A DNA stretch of 32,000 nucleotides from Mycolicibacterium smegmatis (GTDB lineage Bacteria; Actinomycetota; Actinomycetes; Mycobacteriales; Mycobacteriaceae). A program made the position numbers and the translations under genes. The notes below the pieces were generated by a model, which saw only the letters and a program-made list of their open reading frames with translations, had not been told where the DNA came from and did no database searches. Position 1 is the stretch's first letter. Each line of letters begins with the position of its first letter. The DNA lies in assembly GCF_001457595.1 (NCBI RefSeq), contig NZ_LN831039.1:5070001-5102000 (forward strand), in the 5' to 3' direction. Of this stretch, positions 1 through 19,646 are shown piece after piece.

Positions 1-11
1 ACTGTTTTCGG

Positions 12-989
12 TCATGGACCGTCTCTGCGCGGCTGCACCCCAAAGAACGCGCCCCCACCCGAACCCGGTTGATTGTCAAAGCCGGTGTAGTCAAAAGTGA
101 TTCCGTTTGTGTCCCACCCGCCAGGGTTGCCGATGGACGGACCCCAAATCCCGCCAGGCATCATGACGTAAGGTGTTGAAACCGTGAGCCTTTCGGCGAA
201 CTGATCGAGCATGTCGGGTTCCTGTTGCCGCGCTTTCTCGAATAGCTCCGCTTGGCGTTGGCGGTCACTGATGTAAAGCCCGGTTCGGATCGCTTGGCCG
301 GGCTTGTCGAGCACGACAGTCATCACGTTGTCGCCCACCTTGTCTGTGAGCGCGCTCGTTTCCAGTACGGCGTCCCTGAGAATGTCCCTCACTTGGTCGG
401 GGACTTCATCGGCGGGGCAACTGAGCGCAGTCAATCGTGCCTTCGCACGGTCGATGATCGGGTTATTCACCATACCAACAGCATCGATGTAGAACGCTTT
501 GAATTGCTGTGTATCAGGCCGCATTTCGATGCTTGTGACCGAATCACCTTGGGCCTTAGTGCGAAACATTACCTTGGTTACCATGCCGTCTTTGCGTTGC
601 ACACCTGACGCGAGAACGATTGTCGCACGCTTCTTTTCACTGGCTAGCAGATGTGAGTAAGCGTCTCGCAGCGCGTTCTCCACGCGGTTGCGAATCTCTC
701 GGTAATGCAAGTCCGGTGGCGGCTGCCAGAACGTCATCATGGCGGGCGCAAGCTCGTCGTATCCGCTGATCGCTTCTGCGATGAGTCGATCAGTCGGCTT
801 GCCGTCGAGAAACGCCAGCCCGGTATAGCCCAGCACGACCCAACAGTCGATGCCCAGAACTACAACGGTCTTGTTGCTGTGCGGATCGTATTCGCCGGTT
901 GGATTATCTGGCGTCGGCTCGACGCTAACGAATCGGTCGCTCGCATGGAACGCCCAATTTCCCACGACTGCGGCGACGATCAGCGTCAT
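12..989 (-). CDS. Orphan protein, 325 aa; possible N-terminal-nucleophile (HslV/proteasome-beta-like) hydrolase; function unknown
   Basis: Complete ORF. Its ATG (989-987) overlaps the integrase stop (988-986) as ATGA, which implies co-transcription and translational coupling. The N-terminus MTLIVAAVVGNWAFHASD...NKTVVV...LGYTG parallels HslV TTIVSV...AGD...KKVRRL...AGFAG: Thr follows Met directly and Asp sits at mature position 17. No other family recognised. GC is lower than the core. Confidence 0.65.
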   Translation of the reverse strand: MTLIVAAVVGNWAFHASDRFVSVEPTPDNPTGEYDPHSNKTVVVLGIDCWVVLGYTGLAFLDGKPTDRLIAEAISGYDELAPAMMTFWQPPPDLHYREIRNRVENALRDAYSHLLASEKKRATIVLASGVQRKDGMVTKVMFRTKAQGDSVTSIEMRPDTQQFKAFYIDAVGMVNNPIIDRAKARLTALSCPADEVPDQVRDILRDAVLETSALTDKVGDNVMTVVLDKPGQAIRTGLYISDRQRQAELFEKARQQEPDMLDQFAERLTVSTPYVMMPGGIWGPSIGNPGGWDTNGITFDYTGFDNQPGSGGGAFFGVQPRRDGP

Positions 990-2176
990 GCCGACACGCC
1001 CACGCTGGCTGCCAACGTATCGGCCCGCAACGCCGAGAGAGCGTCGGCAACGGCGATGTCACGGCCCGACACCTGTTGCTGATAGATCAGGCTGGCTTTG
1101 TGGGTGGAATGCCGCAGCCGCGCCATCGTCTCGACCAGGTTGCCGACCTGAGCCGTCATGGTGCCCGCGAAGTGACGCAGATCGTGCACCCGCATATCGT
1201 TGTGCCCAACTGCACTCAGCGCCGGTTTGAAAACGTCTTTGGCGAACACCCGATCATTGACGTGGCACCCGCCGCGCGCGGGCGTGAACAGAAGCGAATC
1301 ACCCGCTTTATCAACGTGATTGGCTAGGTGCGCTCTTATGTCATCCCGAATGTGTGGAGGGATCACCACCTTGGCGGGCTTGCCGTCTTTAGGCGTGTCG
1401 ATGATGCATTCGCCGCTTCGGTGGGTTACACCACGCGCCACCGTGACCACAGTGCAATCGGCATCGAAGTCTTTTCGGCGCAGCTCCGACACTTCCCCGT
1501 ACCGCAGGCCGCACCACGCAGAAATCAACACCAGGGCGCGGAAGCGGGCGTTTTTGGTGTCGCCACCCAACTTGTCGGCAATGGCCTCAAGCTCGGGAAT
1601 CGTTGGCACAACGGCCTGGCGCTTGGTCTTCGGGTTCATTGCCCGTTCGATCATGCAGGGGTTGCGCTCAATCAATCCGTCTCGTACGGCGGTATTGCAA
1701 ACCATGTTGAGCAAACCGTACGCGTGAGCGTTGCGCGTCGGGTGCGTCGAGCCGAGGCCGGAGAACCACGTCCGCACCAAAGCAGGACTCAGGTCACGAA
1801 CCGCGTACTTGCCGAGCTTGGGCGCGATGTAGTTCGTCAGCGACGCCTCATAACCGATTCGGGTTCGCGGTTTGAGGTTGCGTTCACTGATCACCGCTTT
1901 CGCGTATTCGGCGACGGTGACCGCCACGGCCTTATTTTCCTCGGTGATCACTTCGGGCGGTTTCCACGACGACAGTCCCTCATCGCTCGCCGCGCACCGG
2001 TCGATCCGTTCCTTTTCTTTGTTGAGCCATCGTTCGGCGATCATTTTCGAGTCGAAGGTGACTGGCGCGAAGTGCCGCCGCAGATCGGGACCGATGTAAG
2101 ACGCTTGGAAGCGCGCCGATTTGGTGGGTTGCTTGCGAATAGATCCCCACTCGCGAGGGTTCTTTTTACCGGCCAT
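986..2176 (-). CDS. int: Tyrosine recombinase / phage-type site-specific integrase
   Basis: 396-aa ORF. The catalytic pattern is visible: CGLRYGEV (Arg I), VHDLRHFAGT (His-x-x-Arg) and LRHSTHKASLIYQQ (His plus Tyr nucleophile). The basic N-terminal arm-type region (MAGKKNPREWGSIRKQPTKSARFQASYIG) is typical of actinobacterial phage/ICE integrases. Confidence 0.93.
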   Translation of the reverse strand: MAGKKNPREWGSIRKQPTKSARFQASYIGPDLRRHFAPVTFDSKMIAERWLNKEKERIDRCAASDEGLSSWKPPEVITEENKAVAVTVAEYAKAVISERNLKPRTRIGYEASLTNYIAPKLGKYAVRDLSPALVRTWFSGLGSTHPTRNAHAYGLLNMVCNTAVRDGLIERNPCMIERAMNPKTKRQAVVPTIPELEAIADKLGGDTKNARFRALVLISAWCGLRYGEVSELRRKDFDADCTVVTVARGVTHRSGECIIDTPKDGKPAKVVIPPHIRDDIRAHLANHVDKAGDSLLFTPARGGCHVNDRVFAKDVFKPALSAVGHNDMRVHDLRHFAGTMTAQVGNLVETMARLRHSTHKASLIYQQQVSGRDIAVADALSALRADTLAASVGVSA

Positions 2177-2395
2177 TTCGTATGCACCCCTTCGTGAAAT
2201 CCCACCGGGTTCCCGGTAGGAATCCTGCGGCCCTCGTCGTTAACCAGTGGGTTTGCTAGGTCCCAACTATGTTCCAACGATGTGAACCATTCTACCCTGT
2301 GCAGGGTGCGCGAAGTGAGCGAACTTTCTTGGACTCAAATCGGTTGTGTTGCAAAGTGATTGCAGGTCACCACTCATATCGGCGCTTCAACGGAC

Positions 2396-2425
2396 GGCAC
2401 TTTCGAATCCTGCCGGGGGCACCCA
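2396..2425 (+). other. tRNA 3'-end-like fragment (T-loop TTCGAAT plus acceptor-like CGGGGGCA CC(C)A); candidate att core, not an intact tRNA
   Basis: The sequence ggcac-tTTCGAAT-cctgc-cgggggc-a-ccca sits 220 nt from the integrase start. The T-stem has mismatches (gcact versus cctgc). No complementary 5' acceptor strand (tgccccc/gcccccg) occurs within 90 nt upstream, so it is only a 3' fragment. Confidence 0.35.
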
Positions 2426-2703
2426 GTCTCTTCCTGGCAAGGCACGCGGCATTGCAATTTTTCCCATGCGCCACCTGTTTTTTGACGGAGTCCACAGCTC
2501 CATGCGACTGCTGGCCGCAGGGCGTCGCTGTGCGACTCCTCAGCCGCAGTGATCGCCCAAAAGGCCGCCGCCGAGGTGCTGTACATCGCACGTTTTGCCG
2601 TCACCGTGGCCCGATAGCGTGGAATCACTGCAAGACTGGCGGGCTGATTCACATGAGGATGTTCAAGTGCCGAACTTGCTGAACCGACCGACTGCGCGGC
2701 TCC

Positions 2704-4068
2704 TTAATCGGGTTGGAATCCGTCGGCGAAAGCCAGGACGTGGGGAGAGAGCAGGCTGAAGGGCGGCACTTTCACACGATGGGTAAAACCAGGCCCCGTC
2801 TGAAGTGCGTACATCCCGCGCCTGCCCCCGAAGCGACCGATGAGTTCCCGCACCACCTCGGCGTTGTATGCCACGTCGGGGTACAGAACGGCCTCAATTT
2901 GGGGATGCAGGTCGCGGATGAGCGGTTGAATGTTTTGGATCATCGCCAACACGCTCGGGTCGGAGTCCATCGCTTGCAGTTCGCTACGTTTCAGCCATCG
3001 CTTATTCCAAGACCACTTGGTGTAGTCGAGCAGCGCGCTGCGGTCGACATCGACAACAACTGCAGGCTCACCGTGCAAACTTGCGGCGAAGTTGTACTTG
3101 AAAGCGTCGATACTTACGTGTCGCAACACGTCTCCCTGCACCATCAGCCAACGGTAGTCGAATGACTTCTTCTTCAAGTTTTTGAACAACTTTCGGGCGG
3201 ACCGCGTTTCATGCGCGAACCGCCCGAACTTCTCCCGAGCTCTCCTGATCGTCTGTTCTTCTAGAATTTGAAGGGCACCAGTGAACGAAACCAGCGCAGA
3301 CCGCAACTTGCGCTTGCGCTCCTCTATCGCCTCGGTATCGGTGAACGATATACCGCCAGCTTGAAGGTGGGTGATGATGTCGATCACCACATCACAAAGC
3401 CGGTCGCTTTCATCGGAAAGATGCTGAAACAAGTCAGCCTCTAACATCTTCTCCAGCGCTCTGTATGCGTGGAGATAACGGGTGTGATCAGCCGGGGTGA
3501 AAGAGGCCACCTTTTCGAAGATCGGTGCGTCAGACCGGTTTGGGTCCCGATGAAACAAGATCGCCCCGTAAGGGTCCGCCCCGGCTTCAGCGTCATCCGC
3601 ATCCAACTTAGCTTCGATGTGTGCGCCAACATCCAGCGCCGCTGTAAAAGTTGCCCCAGTGAGAGGCATTCGCTGTCTGATCTGTTCAGCGGTGGGCATT
3701 ACATCGGTGAGCCACGTTTCGCCTTCCTGCAGCAGGCGCTCTAGCGCTTCACGCAGCGATTGCTCGGCTTCAGCACGAGTGGCCCGGTCCCTAGCATCGG
3801 GCGTCTCGTAGTGGTCTCTTGTTGCGGAGTTCATCGCCTGTACCAACGCGCGCGACGTCTCGGCAATGATCACCATCGCTGGAGTGCCCGGCGGTGGCGC
3901 AGTATCCGGCGAAAGACCACTGTGCCACGCATCGGAGGCGCTCTCGCAAAAGTCCAGCGGAGTGTCACCGTCTAGCCGCGGTAATGATGCGATGAATCTG
4001 CTGAGCCAATCCAACCAGCACCGAAGCAGCACAGGATCGTTGTCATCGGTATTGCCTTCGCCAGCCAC
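2704..4068 (-). CDS. Orphan protein, 454 aa, apparently soluble and helix-rich; function unknown
   Basis: Long ORF with a GTG start at 4068, preceded by AAGGGG 9 nt upstream. No TM segment, no Walker A and no recognisable catalytic motif. Spot GC of 48-60% is well below the core. Divergent from the 4239 gene. Confidence 0.75.
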   Translation of the reverse strand: MAGEGNTDDNDPVLLRCWLDWLSRFIASLPRLDGDTPLDFCESASDAWHSGLSPDTAPPPGTPAMVIIAETSRALVQAMNSATRDHYETPDARDRATRAEAEQSLREALERLLQEGETWLTDVMPTAEQIRQRMPLTGATFTAALDVGAHIEAKLDADDAEAGADPYGAILFHRDPNRSDAPIFEKVASFTPADHTRYLHAYRALEKMLEADLFQHLSDESDRLCDVVIDIITHLQAGGISFTDTEAIEERKRKLRSALVSFTGALQILEEQTIRRAREKFGRFAHETRSARKLFKNLKKKSFDYRWLMVQGDVLRHVSIDAFKYNFAASLHGEPAVVVDVDRSALLDYTKWSWNKRWLKRSELQAMDSDPSVLAMIQNIQPLIRDLHPQIEAVLYPDVAYNAEVVRELIGRFGGRRGMYALQTGPGFTHRVKVPPFSLLSPHVLAFADGFQPD

Positions 4069-4214
4069 TGGATCCTGCCCCTTTCTAACTTAGCGTCCGA
4101 TCCTATGCCTCGGTACCGACAAGCAGGCGAACCGCCAAAGCGCGTTCGAGCGCTTTTACGACACAGGTCGGAACAGTTCCCACTGGTCGGCGAGCCACCT
4201 GCACACGAGCCAGA

Positions 4215-4233
4215 GATGCTATTCGATAGCATC
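4215..4233. promoter_or_regulatory. Perfect 8-bp inverted repeat GATGCTAT-tcg-ATAGCATC immediately upstream of the 4239 start codon
   Basis: Read directly from the sequence. It ends 5 nt before the GTG at 4239, occupying the position where a Shine-Dalgarno would be expected. Candidate operator or translational hairpin. Confidence 0.3.
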
Positions 4234-4238
4234 CGCTC

Positions 4239-5243
4239 GTGAGCAGTTTCAAACACCGCAGGCAACGCATAGAGGAAGCTCTTGGCTTCAGCGCCACAAC
4301 TTTGACCTTCCTTGGCCTGATGTTCGTCGCGGGAATTATTCTCTGCATTTCGCTCTCACTCACCGATCTCGGGATTGGTTTTACTGAACCTGCATTGCTC
4401 ACGCGATTCAACGGAGAGTGGCTGCGAAGCCACTCCTACATACCCAACATTCTCGCCGGCTTGACGGGATTTTTAGTGGGGGTGCCGGTTGCGCTAGTGG
4501 TTCTCCAAACTGTAATTGGAAAGCGCGAGGATAACGTCGAGTTAGCCAAAGCCAAGCGTGTGACCGCCGCAGCATGGCGCGACTTCCGCAGTGCGGCATT
4601 TGAATTTGGCTCTCCTACTCGACGCAATGCGTTGCTCAGCATCGCACTCCACGAGGTCTATCCGCTGTACGAAGAGATCTTTAAGCGTCTCCAGGATTAC
4701 CGAGGCCAGAAACCCTTCGTTTCTCCGACCCAGGACCAGCACGACGAACTCATCGCGTACCTGAAATCCAAAGAAGCCGAGTTCAAGCGGAAGATTGATT
4801 CGGTGACAGCGAAAGTCGGCAATATAGATGAGTTGCTGAAATTATGGTCACGCGTGCTTTCAACTTGGTCTGTGGTAAATGTATACGTGCGCTCGCGCAG
4901 AATCGAGTTGGGTCTTTCTTGGTTTAATGACGACTCGAACTCGATTTTAGTTTCCGCACTAGCCACTACAGCAAGCCCCCTTGCCGATTTCACACACGTC
5001 CATAACGGCTTCGGCGCAAGGCCACCGGCCAGTATGGACATGGCGCATCAATGGATTTTGAGCTATATACGCTGGGAGAAAGACAAGCTTGACCGAACGC
5101 TGCAGTCTGACGACAAAGTGTTCGGCGTCGAGGGTGTCGAGGACTATCGGAAACACACCCAGCAGGCCGCGCTTTTTCTGAATGGCCTTCACCACGCGAT
5201 TAAGCAGATCGATGAAGAAGGCTGGCCGGATCAGTCGGCCTGA
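4239..5243 (+). CDS. Orphan membrane protein, 334 aa: two N-terminal TM helices plus a roughly 240-aa soluble helical domain; function unknown
   Basis: ORF with a GTG start. Hydrophobic segments are TLTFLGLMFVAGIILCISLSL and ILAGLTGFLVGVPVALVVLQTVIG. This is the lowest-GC part of the window (47-48% in lines 4801-4920). No known family recognised. The start codon is uncertain because no SD is present. Confidence 0.75.
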   Translation: MSSFKHRRQRIEEALGFSATTLTFLGLMFVAGIILCISLSLTDLGIGFTEPALLTRFNGEWLRSHSYIPNILAGLTGFLVGVPVALVVLQTVIGKREDNVELAKAKRVTAAAWRDFRSAAFEFGSPTRRNALLSIALHEVYPLYEEIFKRLQDYRGQKPFVSPTQDQHDELIAYLKSKEAEFKRKIDSVTAKVGNIDELLKLWSRVLSTWSVVNVYVRSRRIELGLSWFNDDSNSILVSALATTASPLADFTHVHNGFGARPPASMDMAHQWILSYIRWEKDKLDRTLQSDDKVFGVEGVEDYRKHTQQAALFLNGLHHAIKQIDEEGWPDQSA

Positions 5244-5714
5244 ACATCAAGACCGGAAAAACACATTCCCAAGAGCCTTGGGGCGGAGTCCGACCGCAGC
5301 GGCTTCGCGGGTAAGCCGTCAGTTCCCAAGGCCCGCACGCTGCACGACGCCGATACAGCACGAACAGTCGGCCCGCGGCGGCCGCTGCCGACTACCCCAG
5401 CGGCCCGCGTGAACACGTCGAAGAAGTCTTCTGAGCGCATTGAGGGCAGATTCAGACGCGCGCTAAAAGCGGCAAATCGGCCTCGCCTCAGCGTGCGATC
5501 AAGCTCCATCCTCCGTTAATGGCACCTACTGAGGTACCCACCCTGCGGGGACACTCAGATCAGACACTCTCCACGCGGACCGTGGCACCTCTCACACAGC
5601 TTATCGGGAATTTTTTCAAATCCCCGCAGAAACTTGCTGGCCGCAACCGCCTCCGACCGATTACGCTGGCGCTACGAGTTGTGCGCATCACTCCAGGACA
5701 CAGGGGACACAGAC

Positions 5715-6143
5715 ATGAACAAGTTCATCGCAGCGGCGGTGGCCGCCGGAGCACTCGGTGCGGGGCTTGCCTTCGCCGCGCCTGCCTCGGCAGCACCCAA
5801 CTGCTCCGACGTCGTCGACAAGATCAACAACGGCGTTGAGGTCGACGGGGAGACGCAGGACTACACGCCGAGCTACACCGAGAGGTGGACCTGCGCGGTC
5901 GACATCCAGGCCAACAAGTGGGCTACGTTCCCCGGTGACCTCGCCGGCAAGTGGGCCGGTTTCCCCGCTGACACCGCCAACAAGTGGGCCGAATTCCCCG
6001 GCAAGACCGCCAAGAAGTGGACCGATTTCCCCGGCGACCTCGCTGAAAAGTGGGGCGTCGGAGGAGGGGGCGGCGGCGGTAACGGCGGCGGCAACGAGAA
6101 CGGCGGCGGCGGCGAGAACGGCGGCGGCGGCAACGAAGGCTGA
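5715..6143 (+). CDS. Secreted repeat protein, 142 aa: signal peptide, 4.5 copies of an 11-aa A-x-K-W-x-x-F-P-G-D-x repeat and a Gly/Asn/Glu-rich tail
   Basis: ATG at 5715 is preceded by AGGGGA. The signal peptide MNKFIAAAVAAGALGAGLAFAAPASA has an AxA site. Repeats read ANKWATFPGDL AGKWAGFPADT ANKWAEFPGKT AKKWTDFPGDL AEKW. The tail is GGGGGGGNGGGNENGGGGENGGGGNEG. A paralogue lies at 13130-13531. Confidence 0.8.
   Translation: MNKFIAAAVAAGALGAGLAFAAPASAAPNCSDVVDKINNGVEVDGETQDYTPSYTERWTCAVDIQANKWATFPGDLAGKWAGFPADTANKWAEFPGKTAKKWTDFPGDLAEKWGVGGGGGGGNGGGNENGGGGENGGGGNEG
5910..6056 (+). repeat. In-frame 33-bp tandem repeat (4 full units plus a partial one) encoding the KW..FPGD 11-mers
   Basis: Units start at 5910, 5943, 5976, 6009 and 6042, each beginning gcc/gct-(a/g)a(c/g/a)-aag-tgg. 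Confidence 0.9.
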
Positions 6144-6165
6144 CGCCCCACTCACGATCCACTCA

Positions 6166-6200
6166 ATCAGTGGCGATCCGCTCAGCGGGTCGCCACTGAT
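6166..6200 (+). terminator. Intrinsic-terminator-like hairpin after the repeat-protein gene
   Basis: ATCAGTGGCGA-t-CCGC-tca-GCGG-g-TCGCCACTGAT: an 11-bp plus 4-bp stem joined by a U-G pair, with a 3-nt loop, followed by cgTTTat. It lies 23 nt after the stop codon. Confidence 0.55.
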
Positions 6201-6379
6201 CGTTTATCCGGGACTTTCTCACCGCATTCACTTTTTGCGGATTCAATTGACTACCAAAACAGTCGGCAAAGAGAAATTCTCGACCGCCGGAATCGAAACC
6301 TCTCGCCGCGATACAGTCACGTTGATCGGCATCCGAGTCAGTTGGCACCTGACAGTGACACGCCGAAAGAGGGTCTCGT

Positions 6380-7720
6380 ATGCCCACGACTGCCGGCGAG
6401 TGGTTCGTCCAGATCCTGATCTTCGTGCTGGTCGCCTACCCGATCGTGGGCGGCCTGGCGTTCATCGTGTCGAGCTTCTACTACCACGTGTTCATGGAGA
6501 AGCGCGAACTGCCGCGTCATCTCGAATACGGAACGCCGTTCGTCTCGATCTTCATTCCTGCGCACAACGAAGAAGCCTCGATCGCCGGCACGATCCACTA
6601 TCTGCAGAACCAGATCAACTATCCGCCCGATAAATTCGAGATTCTCGTCATCGACGATGCGTCGACCGACAAGACGCCGCAGATCCTGGCCGATCTGCAG
6701 GACCAATATCCGGACCTTCGTGTCGTCACGATCGTCAAGAACCGAGGCAAGGCGCACGGCCTGAACGTCGCCCTCGCGTTCGCCAAAGGCGACTTCATCC
6801 TGTCGAACGATGCCGACACCAAGCCGAACCCCGACGCGCTGTGGCAGTACATGAGCTACTTCGAACGCGCGGGCGGCCACAACGTCGGGGGTGTCACGGG
6901 AAACATGCTGGCCGCCAACCGCACCACCATCACCGCGCTGGCACAGGAGAACGAGTTGAACTCGATCATCGGCCTCATCAAGCGGTCGCAGATGTCCTAC
7001 GGGGCGCTGTTCGCGTTCTCCGGCGCCAACACGATGTACCGCAAGCAGGCCGTGCTCGACGTCGGCGGCTGGCACGCCGAACAACCGACCGAGGACATCG
7101 CCATCGCATGGGACATGCAGACCGCGGGCTGGCGCGCCCTCTTCGCACCCCATATCCGGTTTTTCCTGGACGTTCCGGAGCACCTCAGGTCACTGGTCAA
7201 GCAACGGCGTCGCTGGTCATCGGGCGGCATCTACGTGCTGCTGACCAAAGGCTGGCCGTTGATGAGGCACCCGCTGCGCAACTACCGGATGATGCCGGTG
7301 ATTCTCGATTACGGGTTCAGCATCGCCTGGAGCTTCCTGTACTGGGTCGCCATGGCGCTTTTCATCCTGAGCCAGGTTTACTTCGCCGGCACCCAGAACT
7401 GGGAACGCTTCGTCCACAACTGGTACATGGTCGGCATTTTCGTGGCGATGCAGATGGTCGTCGGTGTCGTCCAACTCACCGCGGCCTCGTACTACAACGA
7501 CGGCGGCAAGACCCTCAAGTACATCCTCTTCGCGCCCTTCTACATGCTCATCTATTGGATGGTGAACACCGGGACCGTCGTCTATGAGTTCATCCCGACC
7601 GTCCGCAAGATATGGGCACAGAAAGAGGGTGGTGTCTGGAAGTCACCCGACCGGTCGGCCAGCCTGCAGGAGATCGAGCAGGCGACCACAGATCACGGCA
7701 CGGAGACGGGGCGCCCGTGA
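6380..7720 (+). CDS. Processive family-2 glycosyltransferase, PgaC/IcaA-like (poly-beta-1,6-GlcNAc synthase-like)
   Basis: 446 aa with AGAGGG upstream of the ATG. GT2 synthase motifs occur in order: IPAHNEE, VIDDAS, SNDADT, TED and the QRRRW signature of the cellulose/chitin/PNAG synthase class. There is an N-terminal TM segment plus several C-terminal TM helices. Confidence 0.9.
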   Translation: MPTTAGEWFVQILIFVLVAYPIVGGLAFIVSSFYYHVFMEKRELPRHLEYGTPFVSIFIPAHNEEASIAGTIHYLQNQINYPPDKFEILVIDDASTDKTPQILADLQDQYPDLRVVTIVKNRGKAHGLNVALAFAKGDFILSNDADTKPNPDALWQYMSYFERAGGHNVGGVTGNMLAANRTTITALAQENELNSIIGLIKRSQMSYGALFAFSGANTMYRKQAVLDVGGWHAEQPTEDIAIAWDMQTAGWRALFAPHIRFFLDVPEHLRSLVKQRRRWSSGGIYVLLTKGWPLMRHPLRNYRMMPVILDYGFSIAWSFLYWVAMALFILSQVYFAGTQNWERFVHNWYMVGIFVAMQMVVGVVQLTAASYYNDGGKTLKYILFAPFYMLIYWMVNTGTVVYEFIPTVRKIWAQKEGGVWKSPDRSASLQEIEQATTDHGTETGRP

Positions 7721-8223
7721 CGGAGAAGCCGGCCTACGTCGTGCACGAGGTGCACGAGAAAGACGTCACCGTGGACTGGTTCTTCGGTGCTGCGCCGCTG
7801 TCCAGGAAAGTCGCGCAACTGATCTGCGTCGCGATCGGATGGTTCTTCGTCGTGCTTCCGGTGGTCATTCTGATTTCCGCTGTCACGCACCGGAACACCG
7901 AGGGCGGGTGGTGGAGCTATCACGAGGGTTTCGTGATGTTCGACCTGACGATCCGCTACCTGGGTTTTCTGTTCGTGGTTTTCGTGATCGGGTTCCTGGC
8001 ATTGCATCTGGTCAACCGATGGCAGAGTAGAGACCGCGATCGACGGATGACGTACGACCAGAAGCGTCTGGCTCAGCGCTTGGAGCTCTCCGACGACCTG
8101 TACACGAGCAAGTACGGCGCTGAACATCTTCGCCTGCAGCAGAAGACCATCCGGATCGAGCCGTACGGCGACTTCGAGACATACGAACTGCGTGATCGTT
8201 ACCGCACGTATGGAGTGGGCTGA
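7717..8223 (+). CDS. PgaD-like small two-TM membrane protein (putative synthase accessory subunit)
   Basis: The GTG start overlaps the synthase stop (GTGA at 7717-7720). Two TM helices (ICVAIGWFFVVLPVVILISAV and YLGFLFVVFVIGFLALHLV) are followed by a basic stretch and LAQRLELSDDLYTSK, which resembles E. coli PgaD LAIPDELYQQL. The start is chosen by coupling; the track ORF begins at 7612. Confidence 0.6.
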   Translation: MTEKPAYVVHEVHEKDVTVDWFFGAAPLSRKVAQLICVAIGWFFVVLPVVILISAVTHRNTEGGWWSYHEGFVMFDLTIRYLGFLFVVFVIGFLALHLVNRWQSRDRDRRMTYDQKRLAQRLELSDDLYTSKYGAEHLRLQQKTIRIEPYGDFETYELRDRYRTYGVG

Positions 8224-9176
8224 TGTCGTTGTCGACCGCAGACCGGCTGCTGATCGAGAGCATGAAGCAGCGGGAGTTCAACCTCAAGAAGAGGCAGCGC
8301 GCAGCCAACGCGATCTTCCACGAAACCCGGCGCTACCGCGTGCTTCTGGTGGCCACGTGGGCCGTGGTCGTGGCGGGCGTGATGACAGGCGTCTGCGTCG
8401 GTCTGGGAAACACTTTGCGGTACGTGTCCGACCCGTGGCGCATGTCACTTGTGGTTTTCGCCGTCGGTTCGGTGTTCGGCGCGCTGTCCGGGGCCGGCTG
8501 GGTGCGCACTCCGGCCGGGGAGAAGTTGCTCGCCAACAAGGAGCGCCGACTGCACCACAAGTACGGCGGCGATCTGCACGCCGGACGACGCTGGCAGCAG
8601 TTCTACCACCGCGGCGAGGACATCTCGGTCTACATCGGGCAGATCCTGTACGTCGTCGACAGCGAGCAGCGCTTCGAGTGCGTGGACGATGCGCTTGCGT
8701 TCGTCAAGGCGCACAGCGGCGAAATCGCCAGGTTCAGGCAGCGCGGACTCGAGATGTTCAACGCAGTCGTCACCGGGACCACCTTGCTCGTGGTGTCGAG
8801 CGTGAACGAAAGAGGCGAAGTATCAAGCCGTTTCATGCGCTTCGTCAAGACAGACCGGCCCGGTGTGTGGTTCGTCACCACATCGCCGGATTCACCGAAG
8901 GTGCGTGAATTCGACAGCGGCGCTGTCGCATTGATCACCGTGCCGAATGCCGACGGTGCGACGATCAGCAGCAATCGTGTCCGAATTGCACGGTCCGGTC
9001 TGCCCTTTGGCGCAATCGCCGGGCTGTACCGAGATCAGGTGCCCGAATACCTCGACGGCATGACCGAACAGGACCAGCGTCGCGAACTGGTCTACGAATT
9101 GACACTCGAATCGGCGAAGATCGACACCTGGGTCGATCACGAACTGGTCGTATTCAACGGATCAGACAGCGTCTGA
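8223..9176 (+). CDS. Orphan two-TM membrane protein, 317 aa; third gene of the synthase operon
   Basis: The ATG overlaps the upstream stop (TGATG at 8221-8225). TM helices are VLLVATWAVVVAGVMTGVCVGLG and SLVVFAVGSVFGALSGAGWV, followed by a roughly 220-aa soluble C-terminal domain. No deacetylase (NodB-type) or other motif recognised. Confidence 0.7.
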   Translation: MSLSTADRLLIESMKQREFNLKKRQRAANAIFHETRRYRVLLVATWAVVVAGVMTGVCVGLGNTLRYVSDPWRMSLVVFAVGSVFGALSGAGWVRTPAGEKLLANKERRLHHKYGGDLHAGRRWQQFYHRGEDISVYIGQILYVVDSEQRFECVDDALAFVKAHSGEIARFRQRGLEMFNAVVTGTTLLVVSSVNERGEVSSRFMRFVKTDRPGVWFVTTSPDSPKVREFDSGAVALITVPNADGATISSNRVRIARSGLPFGAIAGLYRDQVPEYLDGMTEQDQRRELVYELTLESAKIDTWVDHELVVFNGSDSV

Positions 9177-9191
9177 CCTGCACGCAACAGA

Positions 9192-9437
9192 TCAGTGCGG
9201 TACCGCGAAACCCTCAGGCGTGGTCCACGTGAACGGCGGCTTGGCTACCGACGTTTCCGGCGCTGTAGGCGCAGTCGACTGCGTGACGGTGGCGCCCGTC
9301 TGCATGGGCCCCATCGCGTAATCCGGCCCGCTGACGGGCGAATAGCTTGACATCAAACTCAACGCGGCCATCGCGACGACTGCTGCCAGGCCGACAATGC
9401 CTGACACGATCTTGAAGCGCGCCTTGGGAATTCGCAC
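9192..9437 (-). CDS. Small membrane-anchored Pro/Thr-rich protein (about 81 aa); start uncertain
   Basis: The C-terminal part of track ORF 9192-9746 looks coding: a basic N-terminus (VRIPKARFK) and the TM segment IVSGIVGLAAVVAMAALSLM. The upstream 100 codons look non-coding. A GTG at 9437 is taken as the start. Confidence 0.4.
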   Translation of the reverse strand: MRIPKARFKIVSGIVGLAAVVAMAALSLMSSYSPVSGPDYAMGPMQTGATVTQSTAPTAPETSVAKPPFTWTTPEGFAVPH

Positions 9438-9736
9438 CTTCCGGGCTATATGAGAAATTCGCGTCTGTGAGTACACCTCTGACCACTCCACTCGGTCTCG
9501 GGTCGACCGCCCCCTGTGAGCGACGCCGCTTTGTGTAAGGCATCCGGTGCCGGTTTTATTCCGCGTGCAACGAGACGAAGACCACAGTCGGCAAACACCT
9601 GGCGCAAACGGTCCCACGTGCGGCATATCAGCGAACTCACGAATCATGATCAGGTAGTTCACAACTGGGGAGGTAAGACGAGCCACCCAAGGCGTCGCGA
9701 AGAACAGACACCCCGAAAGAAAATGGAGCTTCGCGT

Positions 9737-10996
9737 ATGACCTCAAGCCGGCAGGACCACACCGCCACCGAAACTGCCACGCTCGTACGCCCCGTCGATG
9801 CGCTCGAGCGCCTGTTCTACCGCTACAGCGACCGAAACCCGGTGCATTTCATGCTGGTTGCCGAGTTCGACGACGTCCTCGACGAAGATGCGGTGCGATC
9901 GGCACTGGAACTCCTCAGCAGACGTCATCCGCTGCTGCAGGTGCACGTCGAGGACCGGCAAGGCGGCCGCCTCGGGTTTCATCGCATCGAGAATCCCGAA
10001 CCGGTACCGCTGCGCGTGGTCGAGACCACAAATTGGCAGGCGGTGGCCGCCGAGGAGTTCGTCGAACCCTTCGACCGGTCACGGGCACCGCTGATGCGCG
10101 CGGTTCTGCTCGTCGACGCCACGTCATCGGCACTACTGCTCACCATCGACCACACCATCGGCGACGGTATCTCGACAATCCAGGCCCTTCGTGACGTCCT
10201 TGCTGTACTCAACGGCGAGACGCTGCCGGTTCTTCCCGTGCCGCCCTCGCAAGAAGTGATGCTGGAGAACGTGTTCGGCCCGAGGCAGCAGTGGACGCTC
10301 GTCACGCCGCCGGATCCGGACCCGCGCATGCTCAGGCCCACGTCGGTGCGCGAGTTCGACAGAACCCCGACCACCATCCACAGCTTGGCGATACCGGCCC
10401 ACGACACGGCGGCCCTACTGCGCCGGTGCCGCGCCGAGCGCACCACGGTGCACGCGGCGATCGTCACCGCGGCCTCGCGCGTACGCAACCGGTGGGGTGG
10501 CGAAGACTTCGTACGCGTGCTGAGCCCCATCAACTTCAGGTCACTGATCCGGGCCGACGACGAGGTCGCGCCGTACTTCAGCTGCGTCATCACCGGTATG
10601 GCGCCACAAGACGGCGCGTCGTTCTGGGATCAGGCGCGCAACGTGACCGCGGATCTGGCCGCGGCCCGCTCGGCGCCCAGAACCCTGGCTGCCTCGGCAG
10701 GGGTTCAACAGCTCATCGGCGTCGATGCCGACACCGCAACCGCCGAGGAGGTGTTCACCAGGGCCATACCGTTCGACCTGTTGATCACGAACCTGGGCAT
10801 CCAGGACCTCGAGGGGACGGGTCCGCTGCGGCCGACGGCGGTGTGGGCCCCGGTGCTCGAAAGCCAGATCGCCGGCAACGTCGTCATCGGGATCACCACC
10901 TACGCGGGAGTCCTGCGCATGGTGGCGTGTGGGTACGCACCCGTGCAGGAGTTCCTCGAACCCGTCGCGCAAACCCTGGTCGACGAATCAGCGTGA
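9737..10996 (+). CDS. Condensation-domain acyltransferase, PapA5-like (HHxxxDG superfamily)
   Basis: 419 aa with GGAG upstream of the ATG. The active-site-like motif is LLLTIDHTIGDGIS, a variant of HHxxxDG. The N-terminal LERLFYRY...VLDEDAVRSALELLSRRHPLLQVHVE parallels PapA5 SEEVFAQY...DALSDAFDALLETHPVLASHLE, and the length is similar to PapA5. Confidence 0.75.
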   Translation: MTSSRQDHTATETATLVRPVDALERLFYRYSDRNPVHFMLVAEFDDVLDEDAVRSALELLSRRHPLLQVHVEDRQGGRLGFHRIENPEPVPLRVVETTNWQAVAAEEFVEPFDRSRAPLMRAVLLVDATSSALLLTIDHTIGDGISTIQALRDVLAVLNGETLPVLPVPPSQEVMLENVFGPRQQWTLVTPPDPDPRMLRPTSVREFDRTPTTIHSLAIPAHDTAALLRRCRAERTTVHAAIVTAASRVRNRWGGEDFVRVLSPINFRSLIRADDEVAPYFSCVITGMAPQDGASFWDQARNVTADLAAARSAPRTLAASAGVQQLIGVDADTATAEEVFTRAIPFDLLITNLGIQDLEGTGPLRPTAVWAPVLESQIAGNVVIGITTYAGVLRMVACGYAPVQEFLEPVAQTLVDESA

Positions 10997-19116: not shown

Positions 19117-19646
19117 CGCACCGCCTTTCCGAACATCAACACATCCTGGGGTTCATTGCCGAGGTTGGGGAACACGCTGTACCGCACGAGGCGGCCCTCC
19201 AGGGTCAGGCCGCAGTGCCGCAGCACGCCGGCAGAACCCGCGTTGTCCACATGGCAGTACGCCGAGATCCGATACACGCGCGGATCGCGCTCGGTGTCGT
19301 CGATCAGCACCGACATCGCCTCGGACATGAGTCCGCGCCGCCACCAGGGCCGCCCCAGACAGTAGCCCAGTTCGACCTCGTGTGCCTGCGGCCGGCGCCT
19401 GCCACACAACCCCACCACCTCACCATCGGCCTCGATCAGCCACGACTCCTCGGATCCGATGTTGAACAACGTCGTGATGACACGGCGCGTTTCCGCCACA
19501 TCCGCATGAGGTTTCCAGGACAGGTACCGCGTGACCTCGGGATCTGACGCTACCCGCGTGTACAGGGCCTCGGCGTCATCGGGCACGGGTTCGCGCAGGC
19601 GCACACGCGGGCCGGTCAGCGTCGGGACGTGCAGCATGGTTCCCAT
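19113..19646 (-). CDS. GNAT-family N-acetyltransferase (RimJ/RimL-like)
   Basis: 177 aa. The text LTGPRVRLREPVPDDAEALY...GYCLGRPWWRRGLMSEA shows the acetyl-CoA-binding region pattern. Its stop overlaps the NMO start. Confidence 0.85.
   Translation of the reverse strand: MGTMLHVPTLTGPRVRLREPVPDDAEALYTRVASDPEVTRYLSWKPHADVAETRRVITTLFNIGSEESWLIEADGEVVGLCGRRRPQAHEVELGYCLGRPWWRRGLMSEAMSVLIDDTERDPRVYRISAYCHVDNAGSAGVLRHCGLTLEGRLVRYSVFPNLGNEPQDVLMFGKAVR

Follow-up and report, generated by a model that had tools for sequence, protein, structure and literature searches.

Why should the integrase gene of a mycobacterial island run directly into a gene whose product begins like HslV? The question is raised by the left edge of a 32,000-nucleotide stretch of the Mycolicibacterium smegmatis chromosome (assembly GCF_001457595.1, contig NZ_LN831039.1, positions 5,070,001 to 5,102,000; the whole stretch is called the window here), where a minus-strand gene encodes a protein of 325 amino acids identical to an M. 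smegmatis entry annotated 'hypothetical protein'. An earlier inspection of this DNA, made from the letters and translated reading frames (the sequence-only reading), had proposed an HslV/proteasome-like protein coupled to a recombinase. Our analysis indicates that the protein very probably has a proteasome-like N-terminal nucleophile (Ntn) hydrolase fold, as predicted by modelling, with proteasome active-site residues in place, and that it is cargo of mobile elements and probably not a partner of the integrase. The features of the gene and protein are as follows, numbered from the initiator Met; equivalence to proteasome residues was judged from topology.

12..989, minus strand: gene for the predicted proteasome-like Ntn hydrolase, 325 amino acids, from the list of open reading frames (ORFs); stop codon at 12-14
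984-986, minus strand: Thr2 codon ACG; the residue opens strand S1 and is predicted to become the N-terminal nucleophile once Met is removed; proteasome Thr1
936-938, minus strand: Asp18 codon GAC, in an SDR motif at the end of S2 (residues 12-18); proteasome Asp17
870-872, minus strand: Lys40 codon AAG, NK motif within NKTVVV, just before S3 (residues 41-45); proteasome Lys33
819-821, minus strand: Gly57 codon, GYTG motif (residues 54-57), right after S4 (residues 49-56); candidate oxyanion-hole glycine, proteasome Gly47
Gly172: end of S8; proteasome Gly128-Ser129-Gly130 region
Gly219: just before S9; proteasome Ser169-Gly170 region
198..986, minus strand: predicted Ntn core, residues 2-264, with S1-S10 and H1-H5 in the order of proteasome beta subunits and longer S2-S3 and H1-H2 loops
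15..197, minus strand: C-terminal extension, residues 265-325, with short beta strands and a conserved tail Q-x-R-x-x-x-P

The N-terminus of the protein, MTLIVAAVVGNWAFHASDRF in the ORF translation, carries the pattern that had attracted attention. When Thr is counted as residue 1, Asp falls at position 17 and Lys at position 39, and LGYTG (residues 53-57) follows 13 residues past Lys40, all as the sequence-only reading had it; the Gly-rich tail it described is likewise present (NQPGSGGGAFFGVQPRRDGP). The start codon (987-989) overlaps the integrase stop codon TGA (986-988) as ATGA on the minus strand, and since this ATG is the earliest start codon downstream of the in-frame stop, a longer N-terminus is impossible. 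Because a pattern match in a single sequence is weak evidence, its background was measured by searching ^MT.{15}D.{15,23}K against 1,024 six-frame ORFs of at least 150 amino acids in the retrieved DNA. The pattern occurred in 32 of them: 30 members of the family described below, E. coli HslV and a single chance match.

The same residues stand out in the family as a whole. Close relatives number 59; all those with an organism name are mycobacterial, and none has a Pfam domain. A profile search over 1.84 billion cluster representatives (clusters at 50% identity) extended the family to 1,091 clusters at E <= 1e-3, of which 508 reach E <= 1e-10. They come mostly from metagenomes, and most of the matches are 300-340 amino acids long and align from the first residue. 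Besides Mycobacteriaceae and Gordonia phages, the family is found in Sphingobium, Desulfobacteraceae, Methylophilus and metagenome-assembled genomes (MAGs) of Acidobacteria. In a divergent alignment of 107 homologues, reaching down to ~20% identity and with a mean column identity of 22%, no column is invariant except Thr2, Lys40, Gly129 and Pro273, whereas Met1, Asp18, Arg19, Asp35, Asn39, Tyr55, Gly57, Ala59, Thr66, Asp67, Gly219, Pro284 and Arg321 are conserved in at least 90% of the sequences. Among 153 full-length relatives, Thr2 is kept in 144, Asp18 in 148, Lys40 in 152 and Gly57 in 151, and Thr immediately follows the annotated initiator in 136 of the 153. The spacing between Asp18 and Lys40 varies across relatives, as expected of a loop. 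Thus the residues on which the original proposal hinged, Thr2, Asp18 and Lys40, are invariant or nearly so in a very divergent family. Two members of the collection deserve separate mention. A contig labelled Nitrosotalea sp. (DATIWG010000039, L017/L027 in our set), from an archaeal MAG, carries sigma-70, LysM-peptidase M23 and large serine recombinase genes; it is most likely mis-binned bacterial or prophage DNA and provides no evidence for archaeal family members. In a 52.6-kb uncultivated virus genome from IMG/VR (L038, 7956-8941), the gene is split into two overlapping ORFs of 139 and 264 amino acids, a sign of a frameshifted pseudogene or of an error in sequencing.

The fold was predicted with AlphaFold2 using the family alignment, which produced a confident model (predicted local distance difference test score, pLDDT, 89.8; predicted template modelling score, pTM, 0.90). 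According to DSSP, the N-terminal half consists of strands (E) and helices (H) E3-9, E12-18, E41-45, E49-56, H66-75, H96-112, E123-133 and E136-147, and the C-terminal half of E150-156, E166-172, H176-187, H193-214, E222-228, E233-239 and H243-264, followed by short strands up to residue 318. The resulting order, S1-S2-S3-S4-H1-H2-S5-S6-S7-S8-H3-H4-S9-S10-H5, is that of proteasome beta subunits, in which S1-S10 and H1-H5 are similarly arranged (PMC8665760). Foldseek comparison of the model with the PDB gave 61 matches at E <= 1e-3 (best E 4.3e-7, probability 1.0), and the best 50 of these 61 are all 20S beta subunits, including PrcB of M. tuberculosis, or HslV. The template modelling scores of the PDB matches, normalised by the target, are 0.64-0.68, with 12-17% identity in the structural alignments. 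The matches among viral models in BFVD include a protein of Gordonia phage Nymphadora, at 9.5e-14, and one from a siphovirus that is named 'Proteasome beta type-2 subunit', at 3.2e-8. The Ntn sandwich that the sequence-only reading had asked of structure prediction is therefore seen in the model, and its central idea, an HslV/proteasome-like protein recognised from raw sequence, is supported by both the predicted fold and the conservation of Thr2, Asp18 and Lys40.

One element of the earlier description needs correction. The C-terminal extension had been put at ~150 residues, but in the model it comprises only ~60 (265-325); the remaining length beyond HslV is accounted for by insertions in core loops (S2-S3 and H1-H2) and by the helix-5 region. 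The extension is nevertheless conserved: Pro273 is invariant and Pro284 and Arg321 reach at least 90% among the 107 homologues, and Pro325 is present in 139 of the 153 full-length relatives. In the full-length model the pLDDT of 81-92 at residues 241-300 falls to 63-75 in the final 25 residues. When residues 240-325 (86 amino acids) were modelled alone, the result was poor (pLDDT 63.6, pTM 0.42), and for this reason the C-terminal ~60 residues do not appear to form an autonomous domain; in the model they presumably pack on the core.

Several results of sequence comparison weigh against the proteasome-family assignment. Neither PF00227 nor any other recurrent Pfam family matched any of the 107 members at E <= 1, and sequence and profile searches of the PDB returned chance matches only (TIM, enoyl-CoA hydratase, OSCP). 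Alignment of the 107-sequence profile to the single E. coli HslV sequence with hhalign gave a probability of 1% and left the active-site region unaligned. More generally, the hydrolase and diverse members of its family have no match in Pfam, NCBIfam, PHROGs or PADLOC. Since a statistical link at the sequence level is absent, the assignment rests on predicted structure together with motif conservation.

Comparison with known systems places the protein among proteasome homologues while setting it apart from the classical enzymes. As in HslV, Thr comes right after the initiator Met, Asp is at position 17, Lys is at the start of S3, the predicted fold is an alpha-beta-beta-alpha sandwich, and a Gly-rich turn between S4 and H1 is followed by (T/A)-D; the HslV structures 4hnz and 3ty6 are among the Foldseek matches (E about 1e-5 to 8e-5). 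In contrast to HslV, the hydrolase has 325 residues instead of ~175, its Asp and Lys are six residues further apart, its H1 is short and followed by a long H1-H2 loop, and it carries the 60-residue extension. It also lacks a linked hslU-type partner (no hslU-like gene is adjacent in the window or in ~20 genomic contexts of the family) and detectable sequence-profile similarity, and it is borne on mobile elements, whereas HslV is encoded by a housekeeping heat-shock gene. The 20S beta subunits are the best structural matches (E 4e-7; 2.5e-5 for 3mka) and share the order of strands and helices and the triad positions. Unlike them, and unlike PrcB of M. tuberculosis, the hydrolase has neither a propeptide nor an alpha-subunit partner nor a Pup/Mpa context, and identity is 12-17%.

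A closer counterpart may be found in the bioinformatic catalogue of 22 new proteasome homologues by Fuchs, Alva & Lupas (2021; PMC8665760). One of these, named DAH (Distant Actinobacterial proteasome Homolog) and represented by WP_085249540.1, comprises 77 sequences at nr90; it is over-represented in Actinobacteria, with further members in Proteobacteria, Cyanobacteria, other bacteria and phages. Its core is proteasome-like and keeps the active-site residues, there is no propeptide, and an extra C-terminal region resembles no known structure; DAH is experimentally uncharacterised (PMC8665760). Our family shares with DAH the spread centred on Actinobacteria and extending to Proteobacteria and phages, the propeptide-free core, and a C-terminal region, here of 60 residues, without an independent fold. 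It differs in size, with ~1,100 clusters at 50% identity here against 77 DAH sequences at nr90, and the association with mobile elements and defence islands seen here is not mentioned in the DAH paper. The two are probably the same family, matched by description, although WP_085249540.1 is not among our listed accessions. PPH and AAH, two further groups of proteasome-like proteins spread by phages, occur in prophage contexts (PMC8665760), and in being phage-borne and found in prophages our family resembles them. However, PPH is ~140 amino acids long and lacks H2, and AAH is compact and had no actinophage carriers (PMC8665760), whereas the proteins studied here are ~320 amino acids long, have H1-H5 and are encoded by Gordonia phages.

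By analogy with these relatives we infer the maturation, activity, substrate, oligomeric state and phenotype of the hydrolase; the literature searched contains no experiments on this family. Proteasome and HslV chemistry depends on a Thr1-Lys33-Asp17 triad and on Gly47, which forms the oxyanion hole (PMC4792962, PMC8665760). In the hydrolase, methionine aminopeptidase would remove Met1, as the small Thr next to it permits, and this would expose Thr as residue 1 with a free amine and no propeptide to be cleaved. Lys40, the counterpart of Lys33, would act as the base that activates the Thr hydroxyl, Asp18 (Asp17) would orient Lys40, and the backbone of Gly57 (Gly47) would stabilise the oxyanion. 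Attack of Thr1 on a peptide or amide bond would yield an acyl-ester intermediate, to be resolved by water, as in a protease or amidase, or possibly by an amine, as in a connectase-like ligase. As no propeptide is present, control must come from assembly, the C-terminal extension or substrate specificity; speculatively, the ~60-residue extension on the core may govern access or partner binding.

The location of the gene bears on what such an enzyme could be for. Two features upstream of it define the island:

986..2176, minus strand: tyrosine integrase, 396 amino acids (Pfam Phage_integrase and Phage_int_SAM_3; PHROG 1 integrase, E 6e-47)
2402-2423, minus strand: distal attachment (att) repeat, a 22-nucleotide exact copy of the 3' end of tRNA-Arg(CCG), ~220 bp upstream of int

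The repeat matches once in the window, where by chance no match is expected. The window showed neither a third att copy nor any tRNA or Rfam element; the other end of the island is the tRNA gene beside argS, off the window to the left. On a longer contig encoding the identical protein (L001), the direct repeat is formed by 8567-8593 and the tRNA gene at 19461-19536. The att repeat together with the tRNA 3' end therefore bounds a ~10.9-kb island that has integrated into tRNA-Arg, with int and the hydrolase gene at its distal end. On the longer contigs with the identical protein the gene order is int, hydrolase, a truncated gene of a family of 302-amino-acid proteins, an IS3 transposase, SIR2_2, PRiA4_ORF3, an ISL3 transposase, GmrSD_N, tRNA-Arg(CCG) and argS; in a second assembly (L002), PRiA4_ORF3 and the ISL3 transposase are located elsewhere. 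The truncated gene, which is convergent to and downstream of the hydrolase gene (L001, 11114-11755) and intact in Mycobacterium sp. NAZ190054, appears to have been cut by the insertion of the IS3-family transposase (L001, 11637-12898). Thus, judging from the overlap, the hydrolase is translationally coupled to int in a tRNA-Arg island that also holds SIR2 and GmrSD.

Comparison of ~20 independent genomic contexts of family members shows how general this setting is. Temperate actinophages are among the carriers, as are islands integrated at tRNA genes, conjugative elements and a mobilisable plasmid. SIR2_2 lies beside the hydrolase gene at the same tRNA-Arg hotspot in Mycobacterium sp. NAZ190054; an AbiE/AbiEii gene is a neighbour in homologue contexts; a TIR protein and a rolling-circle Rep protein are neighbours in another; and in Sphingobium, Relaxase, MobC and PIN genes adjoin it, pointing to a mobilisable element. 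The Gordonia phage homologues are 33-34% identical to the window protein, retain all the motifs and are encoded on the leftward lysogeny strand. In phage Ruthy, gp33 lies beside RelBE, with a tyrosine integrase five genes away, and borders the tail and lysis genes, whereas gp36 of phages CarolAnn and Blino lies near a large serine integrase. A TrwC/VirB4-type conjugative element carries the gene in its interior. Here the hydrolase gene is preceded, at a distance of ~460 bp and in the same orientation, by a gene for an EccA-type AAA+ ATPase (L029, 5763-7538), the sole case of an AAA+ neighbour, and the ATPase may be part of the secretion machinery of the element. Collectively, the predicted fold, the conserved residues and the carriers make it likely that the hydrolase is a mobile-element accessory protease, a catalytically competent proteasome-like Ntn hydrolase. 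One context, an ordinary-looking chromosomal site, does not fit this description.

What the element gains from such a protease is a question to which the neighbourhood offers a tentative answer. It is possible, at rather less than even chances, that the hydrolase acts in conflicts between phages and mobile elements, for example in exclusion or abortive infection. Low-level transcription of genes 34-36 is seen in the CarolAnn lysogen, on which phage Ebert plates poorly though it is not a target of the characterised gp43/44 system (PMC6426606); as a speculation, gp36 is one candidate behind the reduced plating. A more specific version, in which the family is a single-gene anti-phage or abortive-infection effector that on sensing infection would cleave a phage or host protein, we regard as unlikely; if true, it would be the first defence protein on a proteasome fold and might explain the gp43/44-independent reduction of Ebert. 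Several points stand against a defence role. The argument is one of guilt by association; one context, as noted, looks chromosomal; a PADLOC-DB 2.0 scan of the hydrolase gave nothing at E <= 0.1; and all-against-all comparison of neighbouring ORFs combined with targeted phmmer searches found no conserved partner gene. Indeed, the 302-amino-acid protein, a 380-amino-acid protein and SIR2_2 recur in only two to three islands each, in differing arrangements.

Within the same Thr1 chemistry, the enzyme might not be a protease but a transpeptidase or ligase with sequence specificity, or an amidase acting on small molecules. This variant of the accessory-hydrolase reading we consider improbable, though not negligibly so. 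Connectase, a monomeric proteasome homologue, is a specific ligase (PMC7980362), and family-specific insertions together with a C-terminal extension could block ring assembly in the hydrolase, as Fuchs et al. argue for other homologues (PMC8665760). The long H1-H2 loop and the extension seen in the model could be either compatible or incompatible with ring formation. Moreover, no AAA+ unfoldase is consistently linked to the gene. However, H1 and H2, which are missing in connectase, are present in the model of the hydrolase.

Returning to the accessory hydrolase as a mobile-element gene, the coupling to the integrase invites an explanation of its own: the hydrolase could process, activate or degrade Int or an excision factor, the two forming a two-component recombination module. 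The ATGA overlap is real, as the sequence-only reading had noted, and it recurs with a homologous tyrosine integrase in M. elephantis/M. asiaticum; in M. marinum and M. paragordonae an integrase or its remnant is directly upstream on the same strand, and a recombinase occurs within ~3 kb in 9 of the ~20 contexts. Yet the coupling is not conserved. Outside M. smegmatis the homologous integrase with the 4-bp overlap is found only in M. elephantis/M. asiaticum; the tyrosine integrase or remnant in M. marinum and M. paragordonae is unrelated; in two other mycobacteria unrelated ones are convergent and lie downstream of the hydrolase gene; and in a soil MAG the nearby enzyme is a large serine recombinase. 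Overall, the recombinases belong to several tyrosine lineages and two large serine ones, lying upstream, downstream, convergent or genes away, and about half of the contexts have none nearby, including the interior of the conjugative element, the Sphingobium element and chromosomal sites. A DUF222 gene takes the place of int in the 4-bp overlap of Mycobacterium sp. URHB0044, and another context has a DUF222 neighbour. Furthermore, SIR2_2 at L002 13797-15251 is ~90% alike to its counterpart in NAZ190054 (L033, 5467-6921; 1,029-1,036 bits against 1,124-1,126 for self-comparison), whereas the hydrolases of the two tRNA-Arg islands are 39% identical; the islands are therefore mosaic, shaped by cassette shuffling, and do not represent a fixed module. 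Thus, a role as integrase partner is very unlikely, and the hydrolase is probably not an integrase helper. It is a stand-alone cargo gene that favours element edges, a position that would make proximity to recombinases frequent but non-specific. Nor does it resemble an accessory of the excisionase or recombination directionality factor type, a small DNA-binding protein that goes consistently with one integrase lineage: the predicted fold is that of a 325-residue hydrolase, and the neighbouring recombinases are unrelated and often absent.

Slightly less probable still is a catalytically dead or structural scaffold, comparable to proteasome alpha subunits, in which Thr, Asp and Lys would be kept for folding. 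Such a scaffold would fit the lack of a propeptide and of an obvious unfoldase partner, and an unregulated protease with a free Thr1 might be toxic. In inactive proteasome homologues, however, Thr1 is lost or buried behind N-terminal extensions, whereas here it directly follows the initiator Met in 136 of the 153 annotated proteins, and at a mean identity of 22% Thr2 and Lys40 make up two of the only four columns without variation, a pattern that marks selection on catalysis. Finally, an enzyme of phage morphogenesis, for instance a prohead or scaffold protease surviving in degraded prophages, is hardly credible. Capsid, portal and terminase genes adjoin the gene in two contexts, and tail and lysis genes border it in Ruthy. 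In the capsid-adjacent contexts, however, the gene is not part of the structural operon and is convergent to it; Ruthy and CarolAnn both encode it on the leftward lysogeny strand, and the CarolAnn lysogen transcribes it. It is carried also by conjugative or mobilisable elements and by islands without virion genes, and it belongs to no PHROG family.

The remainder of the left part of the window lies beyond the att repeat. GC content is 54-62% over positions 1-10,000 and 65-72% beyond, and the segment from 2424 to ~10,000 is a separate low-GC block outside the att-bounded island, probably an older insertion at the same hotspot; the core genome resumes near a condensation-domain gene (9737-10996). 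The block contains:

2704-4068, minus strand: unknown protein, 454 amino acids, without a Pfam or PADLOC match
4239-5243, plus strand: unknown protein, 334 amino acids, without a Pfam or PADLOC match
6380-7720: GT2 glycosyltransferase
8223-9176: PNPOx-like protein

The 454-amino-acid protein has a homologue (L019, 4249-5643; phmmer E 2e-119) in the tRNA-Met island of M. paragordonae, 2.2 kb from the hydrolase gene there, and two unknown genes thus co-occur in two different islands. At 5634-6143, on the plus strand, lies the gene of a small protein that begins with a signal-like MNKFIAAAVAAGALGAGLAFAAPASA and is predicted to be secreted; a 33-bp repeat in 3.9 tandem copies (5910-6038) specifies ANKWA-FPGD units, and an 18-bp repeat in 3.5 copies (6069-6131) underlies its Gly/Asn/Glu-rich tail.

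Proteasome homologues are paradigms of regulated proteolysis, and to our knowledge HslV, Anbu, BPH and connectase are the only bacterial ones with a known function. The family described here is large (~1,100 clusters at 50% identity) and annotated 'hypothetical' everywhere, invisible to Pfam, NCBIfam, PHROGs and PADLOC; it has probably already been listed bioinformatically as DAH, yet it remains unannotated in model libraries. Its setting on mobile elements, in the company of SIR2, GmrSD, AbiE, TIR and toxin-antitoxin genes, offers a concrete place to find the function of a free-standing Thr1 hydrolase, and both M. smegmatis and Gordonia terrae come with large phage collections and genetic tools. 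Even if the protein should serve only the housekeeping of the elements that carry it, the annotation would still be useful, since it would name a proteasome-like hydrolase and not an integrase cofactor.

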